Below, in pieces: positions 1,037-55,330 of a stretch of DNA of 64,000 bases. Both the position numbers and the translations under genes were made by a program. Each line of letters begins with the position of its first letter. Position 1 is the first letter of the stretch. Location of the stretch: contig CAYMXN010000001.1 of assembly GCA_964394435.1 (NCBI GenBank), forward strand, positions 170,428 to 234,427, written 5' to 3'. Below the pieces are notes generated by a model. That model saw only the letters and a list, made by a program, of their open reading frames with translations, was not told the DNA's origin and ran no database searches. Source of the stretch: an uncultured Candidatus Saccharibacteria bacterium (GTDB lineage: Bacteria > Patescibacteriota > Minisyncoccia > UBA6257 > 1-14-0-10-44-23).

Positions 1037-1333
1037 ATGAGTGATCTCAACGAGAGGCGGCGGTTACGCGAAGGTCGGCAACTTGCTTTGAGTGCGGAGT
1101 TGCTTGCTGGGCGAGCAGAGATTGACGCGCTGCTTGTGCAGAGGGCGTCACTTCCTATGGGTGAAATTGATCGACTCATTCGGCTTGTGCGAACGCAGAT
1201 TGACCAAATGAGCGCTTGCTACGGCGTGCGACTAACCCCTGCACGAGCGGCGGAGTCCAACGAGAGCGAGCTTGATTTCCTCATGAGCGAGCTGGGTGCT
1301 CTCGAGGAGATGATTCTGTCTCTTCCGTCTTGA
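1037..1333 (+). CDS. Hypothetical protein in a GC-rich island
   Basis: A strong SD (ggaggtgagtc) precedes the ATG. Local GC is well above the flanking housekeeping genes. No recognisable domain. Confidence 0.45.
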   Translation: MSDLNERRRLREGRQLALSAELLAGRAEIDALLVQRASLPMGEIDRLIRLVRTQIDQMSACYGVRLTPARAAESNESELDFLMSELGALEEMILSLPS

Positions 1334-1441
1334 GTCTTTCCCGCACTGGCGATAGCTGGTGCGGGGATTTTTTATGTATGCGTGATTTGAAATCTAGCGC
1401 TTACTTCCTTATCATTAGTTTAGTTCCTTAGGAGAAGAGTC

Positions 1442-1663
1442 ATGGATGAGTCAATTCGCAGTCAGTTTGCTCGACGAGGCGAGCTGTCTCCTGTCGAGCT
1501 CGCAGATCTCGAGGCTCGGATCAGGGAAGCGCTTCGTGCAAGGCGAGGGCGTTTTGGTGGGATTTCGGGAAATGGCGGAGGTGCCATCACAGTTCTTGAG
1601 CGCCTCTATTACGATCTCCTTTCTACTGAGACGGTTAAGAGGAATGCTGGGCGATTTTTTTAG
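1442..1663 (+). CDS. Hypothetical small protein in a GC-rich island
   Basis: An SD (ggagaagagtc) precedes the ATG. The overlapping frame 1446..1730 is less convincing. No domain recognised. Confidence 0.35.
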   Translation: MDESIRSQFARRGELSPVELADLEARIREALRARRGRFGGISGNGGGAITVLERLYYDLLSTETVKRNAGRFF

Positions 1664-1704
1664 TGCACGCGCTTTTCTCAATAATCATCTTCTGGAGGTA
1701 AGCG

Positions 1705-2118
1705 ATGCGGCCGAAAATTCCGGTGGTTGATGGATTGAGCTGTGCGATTTCGAGGCTCGTTTATCTCGTCGCAGGCCTTCTTGAAGAACATTTCAAGAAG
1801 CTCAAGCTGGTTTCTCCTTATGACTATGCCGGGTTCGACTTGGAGGTGGTTGATCGCGAGGAGGCGTATGTAGCTCTGAAGATACGCCCGCGAGGATGGG
1901 GAGAGGTTGCTGAAATCTATGCGACCTTTCATCGTCAGAATCGGCATGGGAAATACTGGAGCTGGTCTTTCGGTGGGGGGAGGGTTCTCGCTCCCGGAGC
2001 TTGTGGATGGCTCTCCTTTGAGCCGATGCGAGATGCTGCTACCGGAAAGATAATTCTCGGGAAGGTTGTTTCGCCGGCGCAGAAGGTTCCGCTTACAACT
2101 GCGGATATCCCGGTTTAG
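1705..2118 (+). CDS. Hypothetical protein in a GC-rich island
   Basis: An SD (ggaggtaagcg) precedes the ATG. 137 aa. No domain recognised. Confidence 0.45.
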   Translation: MRPKIPVVDGLSCAISRLVYLVAGLLEEHFKKLKLVSPYDYAGFDLEVVDREEAYVALKIRPRGWGEVAEIYATFHRQNRHGKYWSWSFGGGRVLAPGACGWLSFEPMRDAATGKIILGKVVSPAQKVPLTTADIPV

Positions 2119-2213
2119 CGTGTGTCTTGAAAATTGATTGTTTTGCCCCGAGGGTCTGACTCTCGGGGCGCTATCTTTTTAAAAATGCAATTTACGTTTA
2201 TACTCACATCTAT

Positions 2214-3546: not shown

Positions 3547-3867
3547 TTGGCTAGCACGAAAGGAGTGATTATGAGTATTTGTGGTTGGGTGGCGAATGAT
3601 CCCGATCCTGACTCCGATATTGAGCCCAGCCTTGAAGCAGTTGAGCTTGCGACCGTGCAGTATCGGGTTGCGTATGAACCACACCGGGCGCGGCAGCTTT
3701 GCTCTCTAATTAGTAGCCGCATACAGGCTTTTGCGAGGCGTTATCCCCAAATTGCGATGCCTGGCGGTAAGGGCCTCGAGAATCCTTTTTTGGCGATCTC
3801 CTTGCTTGCGCAGCTCGAGCAGAAGATTCGTGATATGCACGATTGGGGCTGGCTTTTGGCGGGGTAG
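3547..3867 (+). CDS. Hypothetical protein (GC-rich ORFan)
   Basis: A strong SD (aaaggagtgatt) precedes the ATG. GC-rich. No domain recognised. Confidence 0.4.
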   Translation: MASTKGVIMSICGWVANDPDPDSDIEPSLEAVELATVQYRVAYEPHRARQLCSLISSRIQAFARRYPQIAMPGGKGLENPFLAISLLAQLEQKIRDMHDWGWLLAG

Positions 3868-5027: not shown

Positions 5028-6476
5028 ATGAAATTTTATCTGACTGCAGCGATTCCATATGTAAATGCGAAGCCGCACATCGGGCATGCGCAGGAGCTTG
5101 TTCAGGGTGATGTTATTGCCCGTTTTCGCAAATCGCTTGGCGATGATGTTTCATACATTACCGGTTCTGATGAAAACTCGCTTAAAATTGTTCAGGCGGC
5201 GGAAAAAGAAGGATTGTCTGCTGATCAACTTGCTGTTAAATACGGAAAATCGTTTCAGGATTTAATTGCGGCGCTTCATATCAGCATTGATGTGTTTCAG
5301 CGCTCGAGTGCGGCTAATAACGCTGCGTCTGCTCAAGAGTTGTGGAAGCGCTGCGAGGCGAATGGTGATATTTATAAGAAAACATATAAAGGGTTGTACT
5401 GTGTTGGTTGTGAAGCGTTTTATACCCTTGATGAGCTTAATGAAAAGGGTGAGTGTTTTGAACATCCAGGTAAAAAGCTCGATGAGGTTGAAGAGGAAAA
5501 CTATTTCTTTAAACTTTCCCGCTATCAAGCAATGCTTGAGGATTTAATCACTTCTGGGACGTATGCTATTTCTCCGGCGTTTCGTAAAAATGAGGCGCTT
5601 GGATTTATCAAGCAGGGCCTTCAGGATTTTTCAATTTCACGTAGTAAAGAGCGAGCAAAGGGTTGGGGTGTCCCGGTGCCGGGCGATGAGAGTCAGATTA
5701 TGTATGTTTGGTTTGATGCGCTCAATGTCTATCGTTCGGCGATGCCTGATAAGTGGCCAGCTGATTTGCATATTATCGGTAAGGGCATTTTCCGTTTCCA
5801 TGCTATTTATTGGCCGGCTATTTTATTGTCTGCGCGACTTCCGCTTCCTAAGAAGTTATTTGTGCATGGATATTTTACGGTGAATGGACAGAAGATGAGC
5901 AAGACGCTTGGCAATGTGGTTGATCCGATGGAACTTATCGTGAAGTATGGTTCTGATGCGGTTCGCTATTTCTTGCTTCGCGAGATTCCGTCTGATGGTG
6001 ATGGAGATTTTAGCGAAGAGAAGTTTAAGATTCGTTATAATGCTGATCTTGCAAATGGTATTGGTAATTTTGCGGCGCGTGTTCTAACGCTCGCTCAAAC
6101 GTTTGGTGCGCTATCGTTTGATTTTGAGCAAAAAATCGAAATTGAAACGCTTAAGGCGATCGAGGCTGCGAATGCCGAGGTGCCAAAGTGTATTGGTGAG
6201 CTAGATTTCTATAACGCTTTGTTGGCGATTTGGAAGCTGATTGGATATGGCGATGGATACGTAAATGCTAAGAAGCCATGGGAGTTGCCAGCGGGATCTC
6301 CTGAACAGGGGGCGGCGCTCGTCAGTTTACTCTATATTTTATACACTGCTTCGAGTTTGTTGATGCCGTTTTTGCCAGAGACTGCTGTAAAAATTCAGGC
6401 GTGTATTGCTATCGATAAAGAAAAGAAAGAGTATCGTTGTTCAAAGCCAAGCGCGTCTCTTTTCCCGCGATTGTAA
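5028..6476 (+). CDS. metG: Methionyl-tRNA synthetase (short form, no C-terminal tRNA-binding domain)
   Basis: HIGH-type motif (PHIGHA) and KMSKT motif are present. The likely start is the ATG at 5028 (MKFYLTAAIPYVN) rather than the ORF-track TTG at 5004. Confidence 0.9.
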   Translation: MKFYLTAAIPYVNAKPHIGHAQELVQGDVIARFRKSLGDDVSYITGSDENSLKIVQAAEKEGLSADQLAVKYGKSFQDLIAALHISIDVFQRSSAANNAASAQELWKRCEANGDIYKKTYKGLYCVGCEAFYTLDELNEKGECFEHPGKKLDEVEEENYFFKLSRYQAMLEDLITSGTYAISPAFRKNEALGFIKQGLQDFSISRSKERAKGWGVPVPGDESQIMYVWFDALNVYRSAMPDKWPADLHIIGKGIFRFHAIYWPAILLSARLPLPKKLFVHGYFTVNGQKMSKTLGNVVDPMELIVKYGSDAVRYFLLREIPSDGDGDFSEEKFKIRYNADLANGIGNFAARVLTLAQTFGALSFDFEQKIEIETLKAIEAANAEVPKCIGELDFYNALLAIWKLIGYGDGYVNAKKPWELPAGSPEQGAALVSLLYILYTASSLLMPFLPETAVKIQACIAIDKEKKEYRCSKPSASLFPRL

Positions 6477-6512: not shown

Positions 6513-6656
6513 AGAAATTAAAAGGGGGTCGACAACTCGCGTTGACGACCCCAGGCTTTCAGGGGAACTCCGGTTGGGAGGGTTGGCAGGAGGAACGTCG
6601 GGGGACGTTTCCGAAGCTCGACCCTGATTGGCCATATATCTATCATACCATTCTTT

Positions 6657-6905
6657 CCTAAAAAAACAACCGCGTCACATTGAAGTGAAGCGCGGTCATT
6701 GGGCTGTCCCGAGGGTGTGGGAGGGAGGAGGTTGCGGCTGCGTGCGTAGTCGTCGATGCACATGGGGTGCTGACGGGGTTGCGCGCCACTAACCTTAGTA
6801 CACTGGAGGAGCTTCGTGTCTGCTCCTAAGATTGGTCAGTCTGGGAAGAAGTCGCCCGGACTGGATCTTTGTTTTTCCCTACCCACACCTGGGAGGTAAT
6901 GTATA
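6657..6905 (-). ncRNA. Candidate structured small RNA (about 250 nt) with a long 5'/3' closing helix; class unknown, 6S-like architecture is possible
   Basis: No credible ORF. GC-rich. Strong minus-strand intrinsic terminator (accgcg..tcac/gtga..cgcggt hairpin plus U-run at 6657-6700). The 5' segment cccaggtgtgggtaggg can pair with the 3' segment ccctcccacaccctcggg. A weak promoter-like TTGACG..AACAAT lies upstream. Confidence 0.25.
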
Positions 6906-6972
6906 TTGTTCTCTTTTTGAGTCTTTTCGTCAAGGGCTTGTGGATAACTCTAAAATTGCTAGTATTTAAGCT

Positions 6973-10291: not shown

Positions 10292-10328
10292 TTTTAAAAC
10301 ATTCCTACATTCTGCAGAATGTAGGAAT
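10292..10328. terminator. Perfect 17-bp palindrome (aacattcctacattctg / cagaatgtaggaatgtt) between convergent leuS and 10392..10823; probably a bidirectional terminator
   Basis: Perfect inverted repeat. A T-run follows on the minus-strand reading. Confidence 0.5.
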
Positions 10329-10391
10329 GTTTACGATGGGCGTAAATAAAAAGCACGCAGAGGTCGGATGACCAACTGCGTGTGAAAGGAG

Positions 10392-10823
10392 CTACTTCTT
10401 TTTCGGAATCGGGGGAGGGATGCGTTTGTTTTTTATTCTCGTGATTATTTCGAAGAGCTGTTTGAGCTGATCGGAAAACCCGAGAGTCTTCGCGGCATCA
10501 TAGAACGTTTCGATCGGAGTGATTCCGGTGTCGCAGGCGTGTATGAATTGCGCGAGACTTTCGGCAAACTTTCCCCCAATGAGCTCGGCTGCCTGCCAAA
10601 GCGCCGCAATCTTCTCTTCCGTTTTCTTGAGGCGGTAGACGAGGAGGTGGCGGGTTTCGCGTGTGCCGCTCGTGTCCATCGAGCTATCACTTCTGCGCTT
10701 TACCGAGAGGAGTAGTCGATTCTGTATGGAGCCGACCCGAGGTGTCCGGTAATCATCGAAACTGACGATTTCGATTTTTCCTTCGGGGGTGCGTCCGAGG
10801 TAGTACGTGACCGCGTGATGCAT
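10392..10823 (-). CDS. Hypothetical protein
   Basis: RBS aaagga lies 9 nt upstream of the ATG on the minus strand. 143 aa with a Pro/Lys-rich C-terminus. Confidence 0.45.
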   Translation of the reverse strand: MHHAVTYYLGRTPEGKIEIVSFDDYRTPRVGSIQNRLLLSVKRRSDSSMDTSGTRETRHLLVYRLKKTEEKIAALWQAAELIGGKFAESLAQFIHACDTGITPIETFYDAAKTLGFSDQLKQLFEIITRIKNKRIPPPIPKKK

Positions 10824-11305: not shown

Positions 11306-11602
11306 TTACGATGCGCTCGCTAGGATCAGCTTGCGTCCCGATGAGTTGCCGAGCGCGAGGGAGACAATCGCTTGCTCGCCGCTGGCGTGGAGCCGGACTT
11401 TGTACTTTGGGTCGACGAGCGTAGCGACGGGACACTTGATTCGCTGTTGACCTCGAAGATCAATCTCATACAGAGACTTTCCGCGAATCCTTTCGAGGAT
11501 GCGGGTGATTACCGGAGAGCTTGGTTCGCCATAGAGAACTAGTCTGCCTGCGGGCATATATCTCCTTTTTTGTAGGCAGAAGGGCTTCTTATAGAGTGCC
11601 AT
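11306..11602 (-). CDS. Hypothetical protein with a degenerate P-loop-like segment (LVLYGEPSSPVIT)
   Basis: A minus-strand terminator (aactctgaatat hairpin at 11262-11300) directly follows the stop. Could be a remnant of an AAA-type ATPase. Confidence 0.3.
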   Translation of the reverse strand: MALYKKPFCLQKRRYMPAGRLVLYGEPSSPVITRILERIRGKSLYEIDLRGQQRIKCPVATLVDPKYKVRLHASGEQAIVSLALGNSSGRKLILASAS

Positions 11603-12172: not shown

Positions 12173-15205
<3,033 letters not shown>

Positions 15206-15371
15206 TACATATTTTTTCTGGTCTTATATGAGCACACACTTAAGAGTGTTCATATGAGATACGGAATTCTAAACTGATCATTCAAGTACTTCATCAAACA
15301 AGTACTTGTACCAATACCCCTAGAGCGCTTCAAACGCTCGTCTGAAAAACCCGTAATTGTCTTTAAGGGTT

Positions 15372-15761: not shown

Positions 15762-15810
15762 CGATACCTACTTTCTTCGGAAAGAAAGGGTCGGGCGGTT
15801 TTTTTATTGA
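15762..15810 (+). terminator. Intrinsic terminator (gcccgataccta...ggtcgggcgg then 7 T)
   Basis: GC-rich hairpin plus T-run. Confidence 0.6.
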
Positions 15811-15965
15811 AAATAAAATGCCCCGGACTCGTGTGAGTGCGCGGGGCGGAGAGACGAGCGGGTTACTCGTTGGTGATCGGGTTGGTGAACCCGGAGGCGC
15901 TTTTCCGTCTCGGTTCCTCGGTCGCCTGCGGGTAGAGCCCGGATCTGCGCCATGGCGATCGACTC

Positions 15966-16250
15966 CTAGGCCTTGCTGGTGGCCGGCTGGTGTGCTCGTT
16001 CACGGATGACCACGATGTACGCCTTGGTGCCTTTCGGCCGGGGCATTTCGGGGTCTTGGTGAATCTTGCGACACATGTCGCAGACGTGGTCGCTCGCCGG
16101 GTCAATGGACTTCGGCGCGTGCTCCACCTTCTTGGCGACTTCGCCACAGTTGGTCTGGAGTCTGGCTCCTGCCGCCGGTCGCTTGGTCGCTTCGATGATG
16201 TGATGCTGATGCTTCACGAAACCCTCCCAGGTTGAGGAAACACTGCCCAT
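15966..16250 (-). CDS. Hypothetical protein (GC-rich ORFan; contains HVCDMC)
   Basis: 94-aa ORF in a GC-rich island. A minus-strand hairpin plus T-run lies near 15815-15850. Weak RBS. Confidence 0.25.
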   Translation of the reverse strand: MGSVSSTWEGFVKHQHHIIEATKRPAAGARLQTNCGEVAKKVEHAPKSIDPASDHVCDMCRKIHQDPEMPRPKGTKAYIVVIRERAHQPATSKA

Positions 16251-19008: not shown

Positions 19009-19416
19009 TCATCTCTCGAACCTGTCGCCCCGGTATTGAGCCTCGGAGCTCGGCATGGAGGGGGTTGGTCTCCCGCATCCCGAAGTGGGGGCGGGATTCG
19101 CGCATCGTTCGCAGGAGTTCTGTCCGACGAACAGAAGCGTCCACATGAACTCCTTGCAGCCTTTGCACTGAACTCTCGCGTACGCCTTGCCGCGGGTCAT
19201 TTTGATGCCCTTTTTCCCCGTCGTCGGACAGACCGAGAAGAGGGTATCGACGCGCGCTTCCAGAGGCCTTTCGTATCTCTCAAACGCTTCGCGATCCTTT
19301 TTCGACATGCCAGACGTATCGAAGAGGGCGTGTGCCTGTCTCCGAGCCTCATCCGCGTCGATCTTGTCGTCATGGAAGAGCTGCGCGATCGCCTCGAGCT
19401 TCCGATGGAAGTCCAT
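19009..19416 (-). CDS. Hypothetical Cys-rich protein (CKGCKE...CERC), GC-rich ORFan inserted between ftsW and murG
   Basis: Strong RBS aggagaagg on the minus strand. Opposite orientation to the flanking dcw genes. Confidence 0.5.
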   Translation of the reverse strand: MDFHRKLEAIAQLFHDDKIDADEARRQAHALFDTSGMSKKDREAFERYERPLEARVDTLFSVCPTTGKKGIKMTRGKAYARVQCKGCKEFMWTLLFVGQNSCERCANPAPTSGCGRPTPSMPSSEAQYRGDRFER

Positions 19417-23802: not shown

Positions 23803-23819
23803 TGGATTTATACTCTTAG

Positions 23820-24175
23820 TAGGTCTACAGAGTCTTGCGCGTCTATCCTGGGCTGGTCACCCCCGGGGCTTCCGAAACCTTTACTCCGGTATTTGTCGGG
23901 AGGCGCCTATGCGACACATATCACTTCTCCAGACTCCGACTTCGGCGTTGTAGCCGAACCGGAAGGAGGTGATCTGATATCGGTCGAGAACTCAATGGCT
24001 GCCGTGAGGCACCCGGAGAGCCTCGATGCTTGTGGTCGTCGCAGAGTTAGAGTTTGCTGACCAACCAAAAACTGTCCGGGAAAGGATAGCGCGCAGATTC
24101 TTAAAAGTCAGAGGGAGGAGATTTGGGCGGAGTGCGATGACAAACCGTTGTTGCGACCGCCCATTTTAATTTAGA
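23820..24175 (+). ncRNA. Candidate GC-rich noncoding transcript (about 350 nt)
   Basis: Promoter-like TTGTAT-N17-TATACT at 23778-23813. No ORF. Weak terminator-like hairpin gggcgg...ccgccc plus attttaattt near 24126-24175. Confidence 0.2.
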
Positions 24176-24202
24176 GGTTGAGGGAGGGTTCTAGTTGTTC
24201 CT

Positions 24203-27187: not shown

Positions 27188-28045
27188 ATGGAATCAGCTA
27201 ACCAATTCGATCAATTGAACCCGAACTGCTCTGCTTCTCGGCGAGCCCGCGCAGCTTTGCGCAAGATCGACAAGGAGCGTGGAGATGATACCGAGCGACG
27301 AGTGTTCGCAGCGTTTGCAAGCGACGATGATTGGTTTGTGCCGCGATGGTATAGCGCCATTGCTCGTGCAACCCCGAGCGAAGATAGTCAGGGTATTGAT
27401 TTCATCATTTACCGCACGATTGAGCCTTCTGAACTTTTCGTGCAAGTGAAGAGCTCTGATCGTGGGCGCGAAGAGTTTCAAGCTCGTAGAGAGCTGATTC
27501 CCACTCAACAGCGCCTTCCGATTGGCGTGACGGTTATCCGGAGGAGTGACTCTTCGGACGTAATTAGGCGCAAGGTGCTTGCTGCTGCCGGGGAGTCGTT
27601 GCGGCTCAAGCTTGCGTTCGCTGATTCGGCTACGCCCGAACCGGTTGTGCTGTCTGGGTCAAATCGCCTCATCCGGCAACGGTTGAATATCAACGAGTCT
27701 TTGATTTCGCACGCCGAACTCTTGCAATTTGTATTACGTGTCATTGCTGCAATTCGGTCACGTAATTGCCAAGAGTTTCGCGTGCTTGATCGGCCGACGG
27801 ATTTTTCAGTTTCCCTGGGTATCGGTCTAATCTTCGTTACCCAGCGTAACGGAAGGTTTCTTGTTCGACAGATATTAGGCGAAGATGAACTATCCGCGCT
27901 TCGAAGCCCTGCTGCTGGGCGCCTCGTTCAAATCCTTGCCGATCGCTTCATCGGTGAGGCGCAAATCAGGCATCAGCGCAGGCTTAGTAAGGATTTGCGC
28001 AGGTTCCAGAGTTACCTTAGGCGTACCGCGCCCAAGGCCGATTAG
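27188..28045 (+). CDS. Hypothetical protein (GC-rich ORFan, 285 aa)
   Basis: Strong RBS aaaggagctg. About 55% GC. No domain recognised. Confidence 0.5.
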   Translation: MESANQFDQLNPNCSASRRARAALRKIDKERGDDTERRVFAAFASDDDWFVPRWYSAIARATPSEDSQGIDFIIYRTIEPSELFVQVKSSDRGREEFQARRELIPTQQRLPIGVTVIRRSDSSDVIRRKVLAAAGESLRLKLAFADSATPEPVVLSGSNRLIRQRLNINESLISHAELLQFVLRVIAAIRSRNCQEFRVLDRPTDFSVSLGIGLIFVTQRNGRFLVRQILGEDELSALRSPAAGRLVQILADRFIGEAQIRHQRRLSKDLRRFQSYLRRTAPKAD

Positions 28046-31446: not shown

Positions 31447-31578
31447 ATGGTCCCTCGGAAGCGAAGGAGTCGGTTGCCCGGGCGGAACCGAAGTAAGCAT
31501 GCACACGCGGTGCGGGCGGCGGAGGCCGAGAAGAAGCGCGAAGCCGAGCTCAAGAAGGACGAGCGGTCGGCGAAGTAG
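31447..31578 (+). CDS. Small highly basic protein (43 aa; MVPRKRRSRLPGRNRSKHAHAV...); possibly ribosomal protein bL32-like
   Basis: RBS ggagg. Strong promoter and strong terminator. The N-terminal RS..G..RS.H.A motif loosely resembles bL32. Confidence 0.35.
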   Translation: MVPRKRRSRLPGRNRSKHAHAVRAAEAEKKREAELKKDERSAK

Positions 31579-31592
31579 TCTGACTTTTCGGC

Positions 31593-31710: not shown

Positions 31711-31965
31711 ATGAGCTCTCTTCGCTATTCTCGGAGTGCTCGCAGCGTACCTGCTCGGACGAGCGCGACCAAGCGTTACGCGCTTAAGCGAGACGGTAAG
31801 TTTCAGGTACGTGCGGCCGATGGAAAGCCTCGCGATTGCCGTGACAAGGAAAAGCCAACCCCTTTTAGTGACTATGATTTGGCGATGAAGACGGCACGTT
31901 ATCTCAATGGCCAGCTCGCCGCTGATGACGCGATGTTTGAGGTCGTCGACTATCCGACTGATTGA
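31711..31965 (+). CDS. Hypothetical protein (84 aa, GC-rich)
   Basis: RBS ggagg. A terminator follows. Confidence 0.45.
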   Translation: MSSLRYSRSARSVPARTSATKRYALKRDGKFQVRAADGKPRDCRDKEKPTPFSDYDLAMKTARYLNGQLAADDAMFEVVDYPTD

Positions 31966-33000: not shown

Positions 33001-33218
33001 AGTTTATTTAAAAGTGGCCGCTGCGAACTCTCGCGAGTTCCAGTGGTCGGGATGGTTCTTGACCTGATTTTAGAGTCTACACCCCGAGGTATGCGAGTTC
33101 CGAGTTCGCGTTGCCAATCAGCCAAGCTTACTGCTAACCCCTCTGGAGCCACGCGCAACGCTACCCACAAGCGACCAGCTTCAAAATAGTACCCTAGTTT
33201 ATTTGTAAAATCAATTTA

Positions 33219-33258
33219 AAAAAATAACCGCCGCCAGCGAGGTAGTGCTGGAGGCGGA
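33219..33258 (-). terminator. Strong minus-strand intrinsic terminator (ccgcctccagc-actacctc-gctggcggcgg plus U-run)
   Basis: 11-bp stem followed by ttattttttt on the minus strand. Ends a transcript coming from the 33.3-33.6 kb region. Confidence 0.6.
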
Positions 33259-33576
33259 GCGTGACTCGAGTCTCTTATTTTTCGATCTCCCGCCAAGCGA
33301 CGCTTGACTGAAAGGAGAAACTTTAGCAGCGCGACTACCTTCCGCCCCCGGAACTTGTAATCATATGTGGCGCGTTTAAAGTTGAAGGGGTCTTTTACCA
33401 CCCAGTACCCTTCTTCTTGGACCAAAATCGGCGGAAAAACATTCGCACGGGCCCGCCTCGGGTGGTCCACAAACGAGAAATACCGGCAGGAGGTTGCCCT
33501 GCTTGTCGATCGCTAATCGACTTCCGGCAAGCACTCGAATGTCATTTTGTGCCAAAAACAGAATAACCTGATTTTC

Positions 33577-36342: not shown

Positions 36343-36639
36343 TTAGCGTCTCATTTGGCGACGCACTTCGGGGTCTTGCAGAAGCATGTCCATGAACTGC
36401 TTCTGCTCCTTGCCGACGGTGCCGGGCGGCTGCAGGAGAAGGATTCCAAAGGCGCGCTGGACGCTCTGCGCGGCTCTGCGCGTATACCCCTGCAAAACGT
36501 CGCGATGCGGCGGTGAATGCATCGCAGTCTTTACGACATGATCGACCGCACCGCGGTCGATCGCCGAGCTTTCGGGGCGAAAGACGTCGTGCAACCCGTC
36601 CTCCGTGTACTTAATTCTCGGCCGAGACGAAACTGACAT
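36343..36639 (-). CDS. Hypothetical protein (GC-rich ORFan)
   Basis: RBS ggaggg. A terminator hairpin (cccccaggtacg...cgtacctagggg) lies downstream. Confidence 0.45.
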   Translation of the reverse strand: MSVSSRPRIKYTEDGLHDVFRPESSAIDRGAVDHVVKTAMHSPPHRDVLQGYTRRAAQSVQRAFGILLLQPPGTVGKEQKQFMDMLLQDPEVRRQMRR

Positions 36640-40966: not shown

Positions 40967-40994
40967 TTGACAAATATTTATAGTGTGCTATAAT
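40967..40994 (+). promoter_or_regulatory. Consensus sigma70 promoter TTGACA-N16-(TGc)TATAAT with extended -10
   Basis: Exact consensus hexamers, seen in the sequence. No ORF lies downstream. Confidence 0.6.
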
Positions 40995-41000
40995 ACTTTT

Positions 41001-41590
41001 ACCGACGTGGATGGGCCCTGAGCCCCTCTCCACGGGCGCGTGTTTTTTGCGATGCGTGTTTTTGAGGTAGGTTGTTCGAGTGATTAGCCCCCGGTGGCCG
41101 TACACTTGAATCCCCTCCTCTGTCCGGGTCGACAACGACTCGGAGGTTCGCGGATACTCGACTTGGTAGGTCGAGTCGGGACGTGGTCTTATCGGACCAA
41201 CCCGCGCAGGTCCTAGAGATAGGGCCGAATTCCTCCTCTGTCCGCTGAGGGGGTACGGTCATCGCCGGGATAGTAGTGGGGTGCGAAAGTAACTCCACGA
41301 CAAAGAGCTATCTCGACCGATGGTTGAATGAGCTTTAGGTAAGCTCTGGGTGAATCGTCAGCACCCTAAATTGAGATGGATTGGCCTGCAACTCCGGGGG
41401 TCAATGTCAACTCAAAGCTAGTCGTGCGAGTCATCGGCGTGTACCAAATGCTACGATGACAGCGACGAACAGGTTTCGTACTCTGCCTGCAGTGTGCGTC
41501 GCAAGTTAACGGGTTAAATTCCCGTCGATGTGCACAAAGAGTGCTCTTCCCCTGGTTGCCGTAAAGCGTAGCCAGGGGATCTTTTTATTC
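41001..41590 (+). ncRNA. Candidate large structured ncRNA (about 590 nt, about 58% GC), class unknown
   Basis: Bracketed by the consensus promoter above and an intrinsic terminator (cccctggtt...agccagggg plus ctttttatt at 41549-41590). No ORF of 60 aa or more on the plus strand. Many internal hairpins and a repeated cctcctctgtccg motif. Confidence 0.35.
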
Positions 41591-44371: not shown

Positions 44372-44410
44372 TGAAAAGGGGGACCTCCGTGTGGTGTCCC
44401 CTTTTTTGCG
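44372..44410 (+). terminator. Intrinsic terminator (gggggac...gtccccc plus tttttt)
   Basis: Hairpin plus T-run. Confidence 0.6.
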
Positions 44411-44794
44411 AGAAGTTTTCTAAGATGAATGTTGATCGGTGTGGTGCCGTCAGAGGGATATCGGGATTAGGGTTGGTGTTTCTGCCGGATTAGTATCGGC
44501 AGTTGTGGCAGTTCGCTTTCTTTCAATTACTTGCGCTACACACAGCTCTAGTTGTCCGCCTCATATGCCAGCTTCGCAGCGGCAGGCTCGATCAGTCACT
44601 TGTCTTAGACACTTTTTTGTTCGTCGGTTTGCAGTCGCTTCTTGTTTCAAATTTCTTTAAAGCGAGAAGCGACTGCAACACAACTATGTTCAACGTTCTG
44701 AAATAAGTATAACAGAAACGAGTTGACCTGTGCGTCAACTCGTTGTGGAAAAGTCTATTAGGCCTTATGTTTCAAGGTTTGTCGAGGCCTTCAC

Positions 44795-46120: not shown

Positions 46121-46555
46121 TTAGTGCTGCGGAATTCCAGAAATGAACGAGATGAGCCAGACGCCCCAGGCGACGAGCGAAAAGCGGTTGAAGAGTTCGG
46201 CGCAACGGCCGTGTGTTCGTAATGTCGCATCGAGTGCCCAGCCGAAGTGCAGACCCATAATGAGTACCGAGGCGAGCCCGGTGGTCGTGTGGAGATCCCA
46301 CGTCCACCCCTTGGAGTTTAGGCTACAGACAAAGATGGTCGCGCTCACGTCGAGTGTGAGTGCGATACCAAACACCCACAGCATCCAGCGACGCAGCTCT
46401 AACACCTTCTTCCGCTGAATGAAGTGAGTCCAGATGACCGTCGAGTACAGGAGAAGCGCCACGACAAACAGCAGCTCGAGACGGGGCATAGTGGATTCCT
46501 TTCGATGAACTAAGTGCAGGTTAGCGCAAGGTGGACTTTTGGGCAATCTTTTCAA
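46121..46555 (-). CDS. Hypothetical membrane protein (GC-rich); likely start at the internal Met MPRLELLF
   Basis: Several TM helices. A minus-strand terminator (agccccg...cggggct plus U-run) follows at about 46045-46110. Confidence 0.45.
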   Translation of the reverse strand: MKRLPKSPPCANLHLVHRKESTMPRLELLFVVALLLYSTVIWTHFIQRKKVLELRRWMLWVFGIALTLDVSATIFVCSLNSKGWTWDLHTTTGLASVLIMGLHFGWALDATLRTHGRCAELFNRFSLVAWGVWLISFISGIPQH

Positions 46556-46800: not shown

Positions 46801-47032
46801 AGTTCCTTTGCCTTATTGCTTTGTTGTTTCGGGTTCGCCGTATGCTATCGCTGATATACGGCTTCACCCTTACGCCTCGCACTAAGCCAAAGACTTCAGA
46901 TATATACTTCCCTGCTTCTCGCAGGTACACAATATACTACTAAAACCTTAGCATTTTTTCAACTAACTTGCCAAGGGTTATAAATCGTTTTATTATATCT
47001 TCGGCATTAATCCTGGACTAAAGGAGGTTGCG

Positions 47033-47812
47033 ATGACTAAGCTCCGAGGTGTTCTTGTCGGGAAACCGGGCGATTTTCGTCCGAATCACTACCCGAGTCG
47101 CGAGAAACTCATCTCTTTTGTTGCCCAGCTACTTCCTCCTGGTGTTCGAAAGGTGTACTTCACTCGCATCGAGGGTACAAGTACTAAGCTTGCGAGTCAG
47201 GACAGCTTCGTGGCGACGACGCCGGCGAATTGGTTTCTTGAAAGTAGAGATACCGTTGACGGTGCCGTCATTCACGGGCGAAATTCGGCGATATTTGTCG
47301 CAAATGCCGATTGTCCCCTGCTAGCCGTTCATTCTGGCGACAAGCTGATGGTGCTTCATTGCGCGTTTCGTTGCTTGGTTGGCGAAAATGGCGAGAGCAT
47401 TATTCTCGCGTCGCTTATGAAGCACTTCCCTGATCCACGGATGATTGACAACATCTTTTTTGGATTCGGGGCCGGCCCTTGCTGCTTTGGACAGAAAGAG
47501 TCGCTCGAAAACCCCGATATTCGTAAAAACTTGCCCGTCCAGGCTATTCATAGGGCGACGTGTGGTCCCCGCAAGGGTAGCCCCTCGGTCGATCTGTGTC
47601 GCTTGGCAGTGATGCATTTAGAGCAAGTATTTGCGGGGACTGCTGGGCTACGACCGGGAGTCGCGAAAATCGATGCGAGATGTACCGCCTGCGAAGAGCG
47701 GGATAATGGTGGAGCTGGCGCATACTGGTCGCATGTCTGGGACGGCAGACCAGTTCCCGGAAAGTGTGAAACAGTTGCTGGGAGAAACGGCGCCTTCTTC
47801 TGGATCTCCTGA
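47033..47812 (+). CDS. YfiH/PgeF (DUF152, LACC1-like) family protein, tentative
   Basis: VANADCPLLAVH resembles the family motif ADC-P-L. Conserved Cys/His residues. Strong RBS aaggagg. GC-rich. Confidence 0.5.
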   Translation: MTKLRGVLVGKPGDFRPNHYPSREKLISFVAQLLPPGVRKVYFTRIEGTSTKLASQDSFVATTPANWFLESRDTVDGAVIHGRNSAIFVANADCPLLAVHSGDKLMVLHCAFRCLVGENGESIILASLMKHFPDPRMIDNIFFGFGAGPCCFGQKESLENPDIRKNLPVQAIHRATCGPRKGSPSVDLCRLAVMHLEQVFAGTAGLRPGVAKIDARCTACEERDNGGAGAYWSHVWDGRPVPGKCETVAGRNGAFFWIS

Positions 47813-49418: not shown

Positions 49419-49664
49419 ATGCGTTTCTTTGTCTATATCCTCGAATGTGCCGATGGTTCTTTTTATGTTGGCTACACTAATGATTTAAATAAGCGAATTA
49501 GGCAACACAATGAATCAGATTATGGCTCGTGGTACACCAAACTTCGCCGGCCAGTTTTTTTAAAATATTCTGAAGAATTTTCAACTCTCGTAGTGGCTCG
49601 GCGAAGAGAGCGTGAAATTAAAGGCTGGAGGAGGGAGAAAAAACGAGCCTTATTTGAGAAGTAA
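49419..49664 (+). CDS. Second stand-alone GIY-YIG domain protein (UPF0213-like)
   Basis: FFVYILECADGSFYVGYTNDLNKRIRQHN signature. Paralogue of 34823..35086. Confidence 0.7.
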   Translation: MRFFVYILECADGSFYVGYTNDLNKRIRQHNESDYGSWYTKLRRPVFLKYSEEFSTLVVARRREREIKGWRREKKRALFEK

Positions 49665-49711
49665 CCCACTCCTTCACACCCCCATAATACCGAGTATAAA
49701 TCCGAGAGCTA

Positions 49712-50121
49712 GAAAAAGGGCGTGTCTGCGCTTCGCAACACCCCCCGCAATACAGGGGAAAAAATCACCCTACGCACTCCCCGCCGAGCGAGTTCGTGAG
49801 CTGTCGCTTAATTTATCACTCACTCTTAGATACCTTCCTCGGTGCAGAATGCAAACTTAGCTGTTACATATAATTTAAAAGGGCGCAACCAGATCTCTCC
49901 AGTTACGCCCAATACTCCTTTATCTTTACGCGACCGAAATTGATCGCGCTCCTATTCTTGTCCGAAGAATTTCACTTCGGACTTGCGCTTCGGCCGAGAA
50001 TAGGACTTCCGGCCTGCAAGGTAGGGCGGGATTGCCCAAAGCCAATCCCTCGACTGGACGTTCCCATCCGTCCAATCCCCGTGACCGAGTGGTTCAGGCT
50101 TGAGGCCTTTTACCACTTGTC
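49712..50121 (-). ncRNA. Candidate structured ncRNA (about 410 nt, GC-rich), class unknown
   Basis: Consensus promoter on the minus strand (TTGACA at 50151-50156 plus-coordinates, N17, TATAAT at 50128-50133). No ORF. Terminator-like hairpin gggtgt...acgccc plus U-run near 49712-49745. Confidence 0.3.
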
Positions 50122-50127
50122 TTTTCC

Positions 50128-50156
50128 ATTATAGCATATAGCAATATACTTGTCAA
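50128..50156 (-). promoter_or_regulatory. Consensus sigma70 promoter TTGACA-N17-TATAAT (minus strand)
   Basis: Exact consensus hexamers, seen in the sequence. Confidence 0.55.
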
Positions 50157-50195
50157 TAGTCTGTACTTTTCATGTTTTGTGGCAGTTTTTCGTAG

Positions 50196-50872
50196 AAATA
50201 AAAGGGCCCTCCATCTTTTCCTTGCGGATTGGATGAAGGGCCGGGCGGAGCGGGTGCTGTGACGGTCGTACAGCGCATTGGTGTGTCATGACTTCCACCA
50301 GCGGCTATTTCGGATTGGAGCTTTTTTGTTGGTCGCACTTTTTCGCGTTTGTGCGACTTCCCTTATCGGCGCTTGCGCACCGGTTCGGTACTCTCAGGCC
50401 TGCTAATGATCCACCTCGGCGAGAGGACTTTTTCTGTTTCAGATGCTTGCGCACCTAATTGGAAATCATCCTGTGGGCAAAGATGGGACGCAGACCTAGA
50501 CTCTCCTATTCCGTAGTCGGCTTTGTTCTTGCGAACGGGGCTCTCTAGTGGACAGGTTGCGCGTTTTGTTTTTATCCGGGTGGTATTTAGGTCACCTGGG
50601 CAAAACGCAGAGTCTTAGCTCCTACTAAAGTCACGGAGGGTAGCTTCTGGGGCTAGCGGTGAAGCCAGCTTATCCATTCGCTTTTCGGTATCAGGCGCCA
50701 CGTTAGACGCCTAATTCGCCATTCCTGGGGGGCTTTAGCAATTCCTTTTTACGGGTTTCGCCTTGCCTCGCGGAATGTTTCCGTGCTTCCTACCGACGGA
50801 GTATTCGTTCCAAAGGAGGCTTTGAGGGTCGCCTCTGGATACTCCTGCCACAACAGCATCGCTGCCGTCGTA
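50196..50872 (-). ncRNA. Candidate large structured ncRNA (about 680 nt, GC-rich), class unknown
   Basis: Promoter-like TTGACA-N16-TACTAT (plus coordinates 50879-50906) immediately downstream of the gatA stop. No ORF of 60 aa or more. Minus-strand terminator (ggcccttcatc...gatggagggcc plus cttttattt) at 50196-50242. Confidence 0.25.
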
Positions 50873-50949
50873 GAAGCTATAGTACTCCCCTGCGAAAATA
50901 TGTCAATAGCCCCAACGCGGAGCTGTGGATAACTTAGTTTTATGAAAAG

Positions 50950-52392: not shown

Positions 52393-52393
52393 A

Positions 52394-52687
52394 TTATTCC
52401 TTAAAGATTGGAGGAATTTTTAAAAGCCGGCCCTCTTTTTCGGGGAACTCCTTGATAATCGCTTCTTGATTTACAAAATGATTCGGCTGCGTATCAGCAT
52501 CCTCGCGCAAAAGAACACGTCGAGGACGAGCAGTATTAATTGGCCGAGCTGGCAGCTCAGAGAGCTCATTGAAGTGGTCGAGAATTTTTGAAAAGTCCTT
52601 AATAAACTTTTCTTCTTCATTTGGATTGAGCTCAAGTCGGGCGAGATTTGCTAAACGCTCGAGTTCATTTTTATCAATTGATGCCAT
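52394..52687 (-). CDS. gatC: Glutamyl-tRNA(Gln) amidotransferase subunit C
   Basis: 97 aa, immediately upstream of gatA. Typical GatC length and charge pattern. Confidence 0.8.
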   Translation of the reverse strand: MASIDKNELERLANLARLELNPNEEEKFIKDFSKILDHFNELSELPARPINTARPRRVLLREDADTQPNHFVNQEAIIKEFPEKEGRLLKIPPIFKE

Positions 52688-52764
52688 ATTGCTCTAGTAT
52701 ACCTATCTTTCGTTAATTTTCTATATCGATTGACAAATTGTTATTATGTGATACTATCTTGGTT

Positions 52765-52862
52765 AAGCCCTCCCACTCCTGGGCACCCTTAGATGGGATA
52801 AGAGTGGTTGCGGGGCGCTGAAGGCTGGATCATCCAGCTCGAGGCGCCCTCTTTTATTTCAT
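52765..52862 (+). ncRNA. Candidate small RNA (about 95 nt) in the ligA-gatC spacer, on the strand opposite to both genes
   Basis: Promoter-like TTGACA-N16-TACTAT at 52723-52750. Nested perfect hairpin (ggggcgc..gctgga-tca-tccagc..gcgcccc) plus TCTTTTATTT at 52812-52860. Confidence 0.25.
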
Positions 52863-54890
52863 GAAATCTAGAAATTCTTGTTCGTTGAGTATTTTTACAC
52901 CAAGCTGCTCCGCCTTGTCTTTCTTAGAGCCAGCTTCAGCCCCTGCTACAACATAGCTTGTTTTTTTAGAAACAGATTCAGAGATGTCTCCGCCTAAGTC
53001 GCGGATTTTTTGTTTCGCCTCGTCTCTACTCATCGAGGAAAGTGTTCCTGTAAGTACAAACGAAAGACTCTTAAGCTTGGAGCCTTTAGGTTTACTTTGT
53101 GGACTTTCGATGGTAATACCGGCGCGTGAGAGCTTTTCTAGTAATCCAAGATTGCGTTTTTCCTCAAACCAATCATAAATACTTTGCGATACCTTGGGAC
53201 CGATATCCGAAATCTCCTGGAGTTGCTCGAGGGTAATCTGCTTACCCTTTTGAATAAGTTCGTCAATTGAGTGCGCTTGAAAAGCTTGGGCGAGTAAAAT
53301 AGCCGTCTCTTCGCCGACATGCATAATACCGAGACTATACATAAACTTAGCTAGAGGGATCGTTTTTTTGCCGGCAATCTCCTGGACCAGATTTTGTGCG
53401 GACTTTGCGCCAAATCGCTCCAGAACTTCGATTTCTTTCGCCTCAAGGTCGAAAATATCAGCCGCATCATCAATCAAGCCTTCATCTAACAGACGGTCAA
53501 TAATCTTCGGGCCAAGCCCCTCAATATTAAACGCACCCCTACCCACAAAATGATAGAGTTGCTCGCGGTGCCTAGCTCCACACTGCGGATTTGGACAGCG
53601 ATAGATAACGCCATCGCGGACTACCTTGGAACCGTCATATGGACAAATCTCTGGCATCGCAAATGTACGCGCATTTTTTGGGCGTAACTCCGGAAAGACT
53701 TTAATGATTTTCGGAATTACATCTCCGGCACGACTTACCACGACCGTATCACCGATTTTAAGACCAAGCCGCTCAATCTCATCCGCATTGTGCAGTGTTG
53801 AGTGCTTGACAATAACCCCACCAACCTCAACTGGAGTGAGTACGGCGACCGGTGTGAGCGCACCCGTTCGTCCGACTTGTACCACAATATCTTCGACGGT
53901 GGTTGTTTTTTCTTCAGCTGGAAACTTGTAGGCGATTGCGGCACGCGGCGTCTTGCCGATTACTCCTGCCGCTTCAGCGATTACATTGTCATTAATACTT
54001 ACGACAATTCCATCAATTTGATACGGAATTTTGGAACGCTTTTTATTGATTTGCGTGTGAAATGCGAAAACCTCTTCGAGTGAGCTGACGGTTTTACCCT
54101 CGGCGGCGGTTTTAAATCCTAGTTGACGGAGCGCCTGATACTCACCTGCTTTGGTCTTGTACTGCATATCGCTCGTACGCAAAAAATATGCGTGAAAGTC
54201 GAGTTTGCGACTTGCGGCAACTCGTGGATCGAGCTGGCGAATTGATCCGGCGACGAGATTGCGCGGATTAGCATATGGTTTTTCGCCTTTTTTCTCTTGC
54301 TCATTATTAATACGCTCAAACTCTTTTGTGGCAAGAAATGCTTCACCGCGAATAATTGTTTTTTTGGAAATTGGCGCGGCGTTCGATTGAAGATTGAGAG
54401 GAATTGAGTCGATGGTTTTGAGATTTTGCGTAATGTCTTCGCCAAACTCGCCATCGCCACGAGTTGAGCCTTGAATAAGCACTCCATTTTCATATACGAG
54501 CTCAACCGCGAGACCATCCATTTTGAGATCGCAGAAAAAATCCAAGCTTGTGGTTTGCGGCTGATAGTTGATGGATTCTAAATAGTTTAGAAGGCGCTCA
54601 TACCAGTCGCGCATATCCTGTTCGCTAAATGCGTCATTAAGCGAGATCATCCTCGTCTCGTGCCTTACCTTCACAAACTCTTTTAGGGGCTGCCCGCCGA
54701 CGCGCTGCGTTGGGCTATCAGGAGTAATAAGCTCGGGAAATTGCTGCTCTAAGTCAAACAACTCCTTTTTGAGGGAGTCAAGCGCCGCATCAGATATCTC
54801 TTGCTTGTCCAGCACGTGATACTGATAGCGGTGATAATTAATAAGCTCTTTGAGCTTGGTTATGCGCTCCTGGGCAGCTTCTTTATCCAT
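52854..54890 (-). CDS. ligA: NAD-dependent DNA ligase
   Basis: Adenylation domain, OB fold, Zn finger (CPYDGSKVVRDGVIYRCPNPQC), HhH and BRCT-like C-terminus. 678 aa. Confidence 0.92.
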   Translation of the reverse strand: MDKEAAQERITKLKELINYHRYQYHVLDKQEISDAALDSLKKELFDLEQQFPELITPDSPTQRVGGQPLKEFVKVRHETRMISLNDAFSEQDMRDWYERLLNYLESINYQPQTTSLDFFCDLKMDGLAVELVYENGVLIQGSTRGDGEFGEDITQNLKTIDSIPLNLQSNAAPISKKTIIRGEAFLATKEFERINNEQEKKGEKPYANPRNLVAGSIRQLDPRVAASRKLDFHAYFLRTSDMQYKTKAGEYQALRQLGFKTAAEGKTVSSLEEVFAFHTQINKKRSKIPYQIDGIVVSINDNVIAEAAGVIGKTPRAAIAYKFPAEEKTTTVEDIVVQVGRTGALTPVAVLTPVEVGGVIVKHSTLHNADEIERLGLKIGDTVVVSRAGDVIPKIIKVFPELRPKNARTFAMPEICPYDGSKVVRDGVIYRCPNPQCGARHREQLYHFVGRGAFNIEGLGPKIIDRLLDEGLIDDAADIFDLEAKEIEVLERFGAKSAQNLVQEIAGKKTIPLAKFMYSLGIMHVGEETAILLAQAFQAHSIDELIQKGKQITLEQLQEISDIGPKVSQSIYDWFEEKRNLGLLEKLSRAGITIESPQSKPKGSKLKSLSFVLTGTLSSMSRDEAKQKIRDLGGDISESVSKKTSYVVAGAEAGSKKDKAEQLGVKILNEQEFLDFMK

Positions 54891-55003
54891 ACAGCCTATT
54901 TTACCCTACTTCTCACCTCTTTTCGAGTAAAATATTGACAATGATTATTACATATTGTATTTTAATTTAGTTCGAATCAACCTCTTTCAAGGACGCTCTT
55001 TCT

Positions 55004-55330
55004 ATGACATCTCCCGCTCCGTCTCTTCGTTTGGAGCAGAATCTCATCGTCCAGGGTGACCTGACGATGGTTGTCGGAGGTATCCCGGTCATGAGTTTCG
55101 ACGGTGGCCGCGAAGCGGAGACCGTTGTCAACTTTCTGCGCTGCGGCTGTCTGGCAGTTCAGCTGACTGATGATCATTCGGAGGAAGTGCTCGCCCGCGG
55201 CACTGCGAGATTAAAGAAGTATCTTGATGCGTTGGCGATGAGTGGAGAGGAGTTCATCGTTGCGCAACATTCGAATGCTGCGGAGGACAACTATCACGTC
55301 CTCATCGTCACGCGAGTAGCGCAGTCGTAG
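55004..55330 (+). CDS. Hypothetical protein (GC-rich ORFan)
   Basis: 108 aa. Weak RBS. Followed by terminator cccgcaa...ttgcggg plus atttttatt at 55355-55390. Confidence 0.4.
   Translation: MTSPAPSLRLEQNLIVQGDLTMVVGGIPVMSFDGGREAETVVNFLRCGCLAVQLTDDHSEEVLARGTARLKKYLDALAMSGEEFIVAQHSNAAEDNYHVLIVTRVAQS

Follow-up and report, generated by a model that had tools for sequence, protein, structure and literature searches.

The locus described here raises the question of whether a series of short GC-rich islands, set between conserved genes of lower GC content, represents repeated insertion of foreign or selfish modules or a set of small genes and RNAs specific to the lineage. The locus is a 64-kb stretch (the window; 46.8% GC) from a genome of the Patescibacteria, or Candidate Phyla Radiation (CPR), here called genome W. 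The first-pass annotation of this window listed 17 such intervals and offered both interpretations; the intervals are numbered here as islands 1-17 in coordinate order (Table 1) and were compared with two congeners, Z and R, giving three congeneric genomes in all, plus fragments. The best explanation of the islands as a whole, to which we assign a probability of roughly 60%, is that they are a mixed bag of genus-restricted small-protein cassettes, a few genes of known families, and RNA-like units. Because several independent assemblies contain the identical sequence, the islands are not assembly artefacts. The second of the two interpretations is largely borne out: the open reading frames (ORFs) appear to be real and confined to the genus, and the ORF-free islands are conserved and covarying, yet the islands do not form one class.

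The compositional contrast is present, with exceptions. When pooled, the listed intervals have a GC content of 53.8% compared to 45.6% for the rest of the window, and 11 of the 17 rank in the top 5% of windows of the same length. The claim of at least 15 GC-rich islands over a background of about 45% holds for this pooled contrast and for the top-ranking intervals, but not for two weak intervals or for island 13, which is not GC-rich (46.7%, 49th percentile). The GC content of 55-60% originally ascribed to the islands is reached by only about six of them, with the others at 50-54%. The GC profile is non-uniform, and at the gene level the split is clean: the GC content of 42 core genes is 0.460±0.022, with a third-codon-position GC (GC3) of 0.46±0.04, as opposed to 0.554±0.025 and 0.62±0.08 in 14 island genes (Mann-Whitney p≈4e-8). 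The difference is seen at all three codon positions, and the island proteins are enriched in Cys (2.9-fold), Arg (2.0-fold) and His (1.6-fold). Core genes located only a few bases from islands show no elevation in GC. Similarly GC-rich segments that were absent from the original list are found at 10392-10823, 11306-11602 and 28840-29841.

Comparison between congeners indicates that many of the island ORFs encode proteins. For islands 5 and 6, amino acid identity is highest in the annotated frame (79-80%, versus 41-62% for overlapping frames), and substitutions fall mainly at the third codon positions of one frame per island. The dN/dS ratio is 0.19 in island 5, 0.19 in island 6 and 0.26 in island 8, compared to 0.02-0.09 in eight neighbouring genes, seven of which are core genes with values of 0.02-0.07. 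Given this frame conservation and a dN/dS of ~0.2, these ORFs are real genes under weaker constraint than the core, and some nine islands hold small protein genes under purifying selection. Amino acid identity between congeners is 41-80% for island proteins and 91-97% for core proteins. Orthologues of the island 1a gene are syntenic in both congeners, directly upstream of an M16 peptidase gene (80% and 74% identity). The start of the island 5 gene was moved by alignment to a GTG codon preceded by a GGGAGG Shine-Dalgarno sequence, which gives a protein of 83 aa; this gene adjoins the 5S rRNA gene not only in W, Z and R but also in a more distant relative (L101, 47% identity). The island has a second gene, which is degraded in W; in Z and R it is an intact ORF of 58 aa, overlapping the stop codon of the 83-aa gene. 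Island 6 lies antisense between ftsW and murG, was called as a gene in five independent assemblies, and has an orthologue in Z with 81% identity. The product of island 9a is conserved in R with indels that are multiples of three. Island 17 has a 56% identical orthologue in Z and about five small clusters in relatives, one of them syntenic by the pilus gene.

Most island proteins have no match in Pfam, PHROGs, NCBIfam or PADLOC. When nine island proteins were concatenated and searched exhaustively with HMMER against 1.84 billion representative proteins, islands 1a, 2, 6 and 11 returned the query alone; islands 5 and 9 and the 143-aa gene beside island 4 returned only congener or near-relative clusters; island 17 returned a handful of small clusters; and the N-terminal domain of island 8 was alone in belonging to a wide family. 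The island 6 protein, searched against 5.8 billion clustered proteins, detected only itself and its Z orthologue. Phage records contained no match to the island proteins, a search of IMG/VR was likewise empty, and none of the island genes or RNA motifs were found at 80 metagenome loci around distant murD genes. Judging from these searches, the island proteins do not extend beyond a single genus or its near relatives.

The first-pass observation that the encoded proteins share no obvious family applies to most of them, with three exceptions. The island 15 protein matches the YfiH/PgeF family (PF02578) at 24.2 bits, a marginal pass of the 22.9-bit cutoff, over profile positions 74-219 of 238. 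The HsmA-like protein of island 14 aligns with TIGR03987 over nearly its full length (E 6e-15) at 55.3 bits, which is below the 78.2-bit NCBIfam cutoff. Orthologues of the island 8 protein occupy the same slot in Z and R (41-42% identity); its N-terminal domain is common to ~95 clusters, carries a conserved PD-(D/E)XK-like E...D...QVK motif and weakly matches DUF4365 in Pfam. An AlphaFold2 (AF2) model of this protein has a pLDDT of 85.6, and a fold search with it gave no decisive match.

Six islands (3, 7, 10, 12, 13 and 16) are ORF-free but conserved. Because synonymous divergence (dS) in core genes is 0.8-1.1 between congeners, neutral DNA is expected to be unalignable between W, Z and R; islands 3, 10, 12 and 16a consist of invariant blocks separated by segments of variable length. 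In island 12 there is no conserved ORF and no preferred frame, and indels are not multiples of three. Z and R retain its promoter, its terminator and blocks of its sequence, with helices that vary in length. The multi-helix RNAalifold structure contains 27 of 123 pairs with compensatory double changes (3-7 in slid controls, 0/500 shuffles), with a folding z-score of -5.8. Island 16a falls within 49680-50940, an interval without an ORF of more than 64 aa; here too no frame is preferred and indels do not come in multiples of three. R and Z both retain the promoter, the terminator and the sequence blocks, Z has additional hairpins inserted, and 28 of 147 pairs show double compensatory changes (1-8 in slid controls, 0/500 shuffles; z-score -9.0). 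This combination of conservation and covariation makes islands 12 and 16a strong candidates for new large classes of structured RNA.

None of islands 3, 7, 10, 12, 13, 16a or 16b matched any of the 4227 families in Rfam, among them the models for 6S RNA, group I and group II introns and riboswitches. The cmscan searches, run at gathering thresholds and at E<=1 over the whole window and at E<=5-10 over the regions of islands 12 and 16, returned only the 23S, the 5S and three tRNAs. ARAGORN found no tmRNA in the window. Scans with nhmmer and with motifs detected nothing outside the genus among the loci searched, nor in IMG/VR. Identification of the ORF-free islands as RNase P, tmRNA, signal recognition particle (SRP) RNA or T-box elements was considered and found to be unsupported, both by eye and by Rfam.

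The remaining ORF-free islands are more diverse. The three-species alignment of island 3 shows invariant blocks, indels that are not multiples of three, and several frames that are about equally conserved. Island 7 is ~93% identical to Z versus 85% for its flanks, with 1-nt indels and several equally conserved frames. Island 10 includes a promoter-driven leader, which closes with a hairpin resembling a terminator immediately ahead of the start codon of ychF, an attenuator-like arrangement. The promoter, leader and hairpin are conserved in R, with 1-nt indels, and R carries an inserted 219-aa gene between the two parts of the island. Island 13 exhibits 94% column identity over the three species compared to ~84% in its flanks, and is more conserved than the flanking protein genes. 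It shows no codon periodicity and contains 1-nt indels; its plus strand is predicted to form a ~210-nt rod plus a 23-bp hairpin with compensatory changes. No promoter was recognised for island 13, which may be a 6S-like or other essential RNA. The slot of island 16b holds a promoter-terminator unit in Z, R and the sister genome described below as well, with sequences that can barely be aligned; the unit in the gatA-murD slot of the sister genome is a different one.

Islands 1a, 3, 5, 7, 8 and 12-17 are stable across the congeners, and islands 2, 6, 11, the 1340-2200 insert and a cassette family designated family X are patchy. One case of turnover is the ftsW-murG spacer, which in W holds the island 6 cassette, in Z island 6 plus a second cassette, and in R the second cassette alone; both cassettes have clean boundaries and their own promoter and terminator. 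The second cassette belongs to family X, a set of paralogous GC-rich genes for proteins of ~150 aa that is absent from the window. Three copies occur within 16.6 kb in Z and at least one in R, with their own promoters and a common terminator motif. The family X proteins have no Pfam or PADLOC match and carry the motif ERKIVLL.FG...EDALRFGAQHPEVQR. A weak match to family X (E 0.007) was also seen just upstream of murG in a distant metagenome-assembled genome (MAG; L010). The insert at 1340-2200 cannot be aligned to Z or R, in which the 98-aa gene of island 1a abuts the M16 peptidase gene, and its ORFs (1446-1730 and 1705-2118) have no Pfam, PHROG or NCBIfam match. In R, the slot of island 11 is taken by a GC-rich ORF (62%) that is unrelated to it and lies on the opposite strand, and the slots of islands 9, 10 and 12 contain additional genes. 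R also has a 38%-GC gene with a metallo-beta-lactamase fold (L092:10761-11408) inserted between map and the candidate RNA of island 12; neither W nor Z has this gene, which shows a faint match to the Anti-Pycsar protein Apyc1. Homologues of islands 5 and 17 are found in the same positions, by the 5S and by the pilus gene respectively, on contigs of more distant relatives, so these two islands are old residents. In sum, most islands are syntenic in all the genomes that cover them, and several cassettes have been lost, added or replaced. The opposite orientation noted by the first-pass annotation is also observed, as at least seven islands (4, 5, 6, 9, 12, 15 and 17) are inverted relative to both neighbours, including that between ftsW and murG.

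Marks of mobility were not detected. A repeat search of the window found no repeats linking or flanking the islands, an all-against-all comparison found no protein similarity between them, and no target duplications, integrases, transposases or tRNA-flanked ends were seen at islands. Family scans of the window proteins revealed no mobility domains. Only islands 14-16 are near tRNAs, and these are syntenic in all three genomes. By these comparisons the islands are unrelated to one another in sequence and are not one class; an interspersed repeat or mobile element family (repetitive extragenic palindromes, REP; miniature inverted-repeat transposable elements, MITE; insertion sequences, IS) was rejected, there being no sequence similarity between islands.

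Among the alternatives, the one that survives best is that the islands are recent, unameliorated imports from a GC-richer donor such as a host, phage, plasmid or GC-rich sister Patescibacteria. Atypical GC and GC3 in the island genes, the gain, loss and replacement of whole cassettes between congeners, the multi-copy, GC-rich family X with its common terminator motif, and the nuclease-like domain of island 8 would all be consistent with import. So would the composition of the nearest sister lineage, L098 (GCA_964351575.1; GatA 71% identical, with the same pilus-ligA-gatCA synteny), which at 54% GC and with a GC3 of ~0.7 (0.61-0.74 in core genes) equals that of the islands. However, most island proteins have no homologue in the 1.84e9 representatives, phage records or IMG/VR, the islands share no common sequence, flanking repeat, integrase or transposase, and most are syntenic in the three congeners, with islands 5 and 17 syntenic in more distant relatives as well. 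Substitutions in islands 5, 14 and 15 furthermore fit a stationary high GC content rather than decay. We regard recent import as unlikely, and the proposal of repeated foreign or selfish insertion accounts for a minor part of the islands at best. In a weaker sense the insertion idea retains some merit, as cassettes are present, absent or replaced at the same spacers and a multi-copy family exists in relatives, with no foreign origin seen. Transfer from the high-GC actinobacterial hosts of Saccharibacteria was discarded in view of the absence of homologues and of the relatives of GatA, which are Parcubacteria-type although one congener is labelled "Saccharibacteria".

The 54%-GC sister lineage may represent a pool of donors, or it may point to an ancestor of higher GC content. 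It differs from the genus of W by ~8 GC points and ~25 points at GC3, a large shift between neighbouring lineages. A second alternative is that the GC contrast reflects a genome-wide shift from such an ancestor, with the islands retaining their GC by constraint or by local GC-biased gene conversion at accessory loci prone to recombination. Changes at fourfold-degenerate sites, polarised on the W/Z/R tree for 15 core genes and five island genes, bear on this point. Equilibrium GC at these sites is 0.49 in core genes, which are stationary, and 0.63 in the pooled island genes (0.74 for the HsmA-like gene, 0.62 for YfiH). Taken together, islands 5, 14 and 15 have a higher rate of AT-to-GC change than the core (odds ratio 1.9) and a lower rate of GC-to-AT change (odds ratio 0.59; p~0.005). 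Island 5, with a fourfold-site GC of 0.89/0.79/0.93, shows 4 GC-to-AT changes in 75 sites versus 16.7% in core genes (p=0.003), and its homologue in a more distant relative has a GC3 of 0.76. These values and the composition of the sister lineage could be accommodated by a genome-wide shift, but sequence under weaker constraint would be expected to respond to a mutational shift sooner rather than later, the core genes a few bases away lack any GC elevation, and the comparison is based on one sister contig. A genome-wide shift is considered improbable. The substitution pattern suggests that the GC content of the cassettes is actively maintained, via selection on the sequence or a local GC-biased process, and is not a fading mark of import. 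The mRNAs of the islands are mildly structured (z ~-2; control +0.7). No single cause covers all the islands, because the GC content of islands 1a and 8 stems from amino acid composition.

The least probable alternative, and a very doubtful one, is that all islands are non-coding structured RNA or regulatory DNA and their ORFs chance open frames: GC-rich DNA is stop-poor, ORFs overlap on both strands of islands 5, 6, 14 and 15, gene callers took an antisense frame in R for island 5 and a 177-aa ORF over island 3, synonymous change in island 5 is unusually low and island mRNAs fold slightly better than shuffled sequence, but the third-position substitutions, the single best-conserved frame and the dN/dS described above, together with the triplet indels of island 9a, Shine-Dalgarno sequences before starts and matches of three island proteins to families, all speak against it.

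With regard to expression, a sigma-70-like promoter and/or an intrinsic terminator was recognised for ~12 of the 17 islands, and several island promoters match 11-12 of 12 consensus positions. In islands 12 and 16a, the predicted signals are conserved TTGACA/TATAAT-like promoters and terminators made up of a hairpin and a T run. In the mixed-bag explanation, the islands would be lineage-specific "filler" between core operons, of two main kinds. The first would consist of monocistronic cassettes (one of them bicistronic), each with a sigma-70-type promoter and an intrinsic terminator; the small proteins that they encode have a high content of Cys, Arg and His, and some are zinc-ribbon-like or nuclease-like. 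These proteins evolve 3-10 times faster than the core, and whole cassettes are lost, duplicated or replaced at fixed spacers. The second kind would be independent ORF-free transcription units making structured RNAs, whose GC-richness may reflect the requirement for stable helices in an AT-leaning genome. That the promoters and terminators are in use, what roles the proteins and RNAs play, and what causes the GC content of the cassettes are all inferred from sequence comparison.

Several points weigh against this explanation. The grouping of the islands is partly an artefact of selecting on GC. Promoter-like matches are overall no commoner than in shuffled sequence, and the promoters and terminators of the ~12 islands are predicted from sequence signals. 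Comparative evidence for coding is slight or absent for islands 2 and 11 and for the ORFs at 1446-2118. The RNA structures were derived from the same alignments used for the covariation counts, which inflates the contrast with the controls, and the covariation rests on three congeneric genomes plus fragments. The sample of polarised substitutions is small (222 AT sites, 396 GC sites), and islands 1a (1037-1333) and 8 (27188-28045) have ordinary fourfold-site GC. A more ambitious form of the explanation, in which the genus carries at least two undescribed large structured RNA classes plus smaller units within 64 kb and cassettes held GC-high by a gene-specific force, is put forward tentatively, at somewhat less than even odds.

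Where a genome is AT-leaning, intergenic regions of high GC content (GC-IGRs) are well known as markers of structured RNAs (PMC6429828). Like the non-coding RNAs (ncRNAs) found in this way, islands 3, 7, 10, 12 and 16 are long, GC-richer than their surroundings and conserved, with negative folding z-scores and, in 12 and 16a, covariation; unlike them, they reside in a genome that is only moderately AT-leaning (47% GC), have no Rfam match, and include two of unusually large size (~590 and ~680 nt). The GC-IGR approach is reportedly associated with the Breaker laboratory, and Klein and Eddy (2002) are said to have found structured ncRNAs as GC-rich regions in AT-rich hyperthermophiles. Bacterial structured RNAs of more than 500 nt are rare, and known classes such as OLE, ROOL and GOLLD have proved biologically unusual. 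The candidates resemble OLE, ROOL, GOLLD, HEARO and raiA in exceeding 500 nt, in their many predicted helices, in their putative promoters and terminators, and in being ORF-free and narrow in range. They match none of the Rfam models of those RNAs and were not found on phage or viral contigs, and the likeness is one of size and architecture alone. The position of island 16a near a tRNA gene may be a further point of comparison with large bacterial ncRNAs. The two large-RNA candidates, in an uncultured CPR lineage, are worth modelling and searching for more widely, and if they are real, the load of unknown RNA would be unusually high for a reduced genome.

The protein cassettes resemble bacterial ORFans and flexible genomic islets in being short, fast-evolving, lineage-restricted, located between core genes and variably present in close relatives. 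Bacterial ORFans and acquired genes are reportedly AT-richer than their genome as a rule (Daubin and Ochman, 2004), unlike the island genes, which are GC-richer by ~9 points and in some cases apparently maintained so. If the explanation holds, GC-high cassettes would be the reverse of the usual pattern, and ORFans that are GC-rich and stay so pose a compositional puzzle. The cassettes would also provide a compact example of reduced, episymbiont-type genomes keeping fast-changing lineage-specific genes at fixed slots between essential operons. Island 5 in Z and R, as an 83- and 58-aa pair with overlapping stop and start and its own promoter and terminator, is similar to type II toxin-antitoxin modules, and one partner has decayed in W; unlike such modules, it is syntenic and old rather than mobile. 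The 83-aa protein has no match in Pfam, NCBIfam or PADLOC (the 58-aa partner was not scanned). Because gene callers pick antisense or spurious ORFs here, mis-annotating such islands, the annotations of such MAGs deserve caution; the 177-aa gene called over island 3 in R is probably spurious.

Table 1. Features of the islands and adjoining units, with the intervals as first listed and their rank by GC content among windows of the same length.
Feature	Coordinates	Strand	Signals and comparisons	Listed interval (GC rank)
Island 1a, 98-aa ORFan gene	1037..1333	+	GC 0.56; terminator 1338-1367	1037-2118 (top 5%)
W-specific ~0.8-kb insert	1340..2200	+	ORFs 1446-1730, 1705-2118; promoter 1387-1415; terminator 2144-2170	
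Island 2, 106-aa ORFan gene	3547..3867	+	Absent in Z; 34%-identical 99-aa gene in same slot in R	3547-3867 (borderline, 5-6%)
Island 3, structured element between metG and tatD	6520..6950	+	Minimum free energy (MFE) z-score -3.4	6520-6960 (borderline, 5-6%)
143-aa ORFan gene beside island 4	10392..10823	-	GC3 0.65; 54% aa orthologue at same position in Z	
Island 4, spacer				10900-11250 (weak, about 15th percentile)
98-aa ORFan gene	11306..11602	-	56% aa orthologue in Z; no family match; terminator 11299-11268 just downstream; promoter 11261-11234 beyond, facing island 4 spacer	
Island 5, second gene, degraded in W	15804..15953	-	Two deletions in W	
Island 5, 83-aa Cys-containing ORFan gene	15966..16217	-	Promoter 16281-16253	15820-16260 (61.9%; top 5%)
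Island 6, 135-aa ORFan gene, CxxC...CxxC motif	19009..19416	-	Promoter 19481-19453; terminator 19003-18976	19009-19416 (59.1%; top 5%)
Island 7, conserved element ending in terminator	23810..24185	+	z-score -2.6	23810-24200 (borderline, 5-6%)
Island 8, 285-aa fast-evolving protein, PD-(D/E)XK-like N-terminal domain	27188..28045	+		27188-28045 (top 5%)
Island 9a, 43-aa very basic small protein gene	31447..31578	+	Promoter 31378-31406; Shine-Dalgarno and terminator	31440-31965 (top 5%)
Island 9b, 84-aa ORFan gene	31711..31965	+	48% aa orthologue in R; terminator 31972-31994	
Island 10, conserved element and leader	33005..33575	-	~350-nt conserved 3' element after ftsQ operon; ~200-nt leader before ychF	33000-33580 (weak, about 15th percentile)
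Island 11, 98-aa ORFan gene	36343..36639	-	GC3 0.72; promoter 36754-36727; terminator 36334-36305	36343-36639 (59.9%; top 5%)
Island 12, ~590-nt structured ncRNA candidate	40996..41584	+	Promoter 40967-40994 (12/12); terminator 41548-41579	40990-41580 (top 5%)
Island 13, ultra-conserved non-coding element	44406..44716			44410-44700 (not GC-rich)
Island 14, HsmA-like membrane protein gene	46121..46555	-	Orthologues with 90% aa identity in Z, 85% in R	46121-46555 (top 5%)
Island 15, YfiH/PgeF-family (Cu-oxidase_4) gene	47033..47812	+	Promoter 46968-46996; 61% and 70% aa in Z and R	47033-47812 (top 5%)
Island 16b, ~240-nt ORF-free unit	49880..50122	-	Perfect promoter 50156-50128; terminator 49910-49881	
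Island 16a, ~680-nt structured ncRNA candidate, downstream of gatA	50195..50872	-	Promoter 50906-50879; terminator ~50235-50195	49680-50940 (top 5%)
Island 17, 108-aa ORFan-family gene	55004..55330	+	Promoter 54935-54963; terminator 55351-55374	55004-55330 (top 5%)
Family X copies in relatives	L007:692-1144, 1325-1768, 5799-6254; L100:4884-5336			

The conserved genes of the window include those for aminoacyl-tRNA synthetases, genes for cell wall synthesis and division (ftsW, murG, murD, ftsQ and alr), a sortase and an LPXTG surface protein, and a type IV pilus operon, along with three tRNAs and a 23S-5S rRNA pair that has no 16S beside it. The 23S (12194-15490 region) measures 3014 nt, compared to a 2925-nt model. 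No 16S lies upstream of the 23S and 5S; in its place are two GC-rich ORFan genes on the opposite strand. A 26-nt inverted repeat (12122-12147 and 15265-15290, 92% complementary) flanks the 23S in the manner of a processing stem. Directly after the 5S, at 15596-15735, is a 46-aa small ORF (MKKVLSAVIVVLIGAAILYVLENW...) with a hydrophobic N-terminus, a Shine-Dalgarno sequence and a terminator; Z lacks this ORF and has two family X cassettes in that place.

The leucyl-tRNA synthetase LeuS is 965 aa in Z (L095:8174-11071; weak NUDIX match) versus 822 aa in W (7818-10286), an insertion of ~140 aa in a core synthetase. Directly after leuS, at 10297-10332, is a 36-nt perfect palindrome, AAACATTCCTACATTCTGCAGAATGTAGGAATGTTT, which is 100% identical at another locus in a related organism (L102:481-515), between the island 17 homologue and a pilus gene; it could be a small mobile element, acting as a palindromic terminator. 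An 81-aa GIY-YIG nuclease-like gene of 40% GC at 49419-49664 adjoins tRNA-Met and cannot be aligned to Z or R at that position; in R, a GIY-YIG gene is found instead at the upstream end of gatA. Positions 24201-25900 form an AT-rich island of the classical kind (35-40% GC), which contains a PIN-domain gene (24400-24984) and a small zinc-ribbon-like ORF. The same slot in Z holds different AT-rich DNA, and of all the window this region looks most like recent foreign DNA. GC skew is +0.1 to +0.4 where genes are on the plus strand and ~0 where they are on the minus strand, which suggests replication-linked and coding-strand skews of similar size that add in 1-32000 and cancel in 32000-64000.

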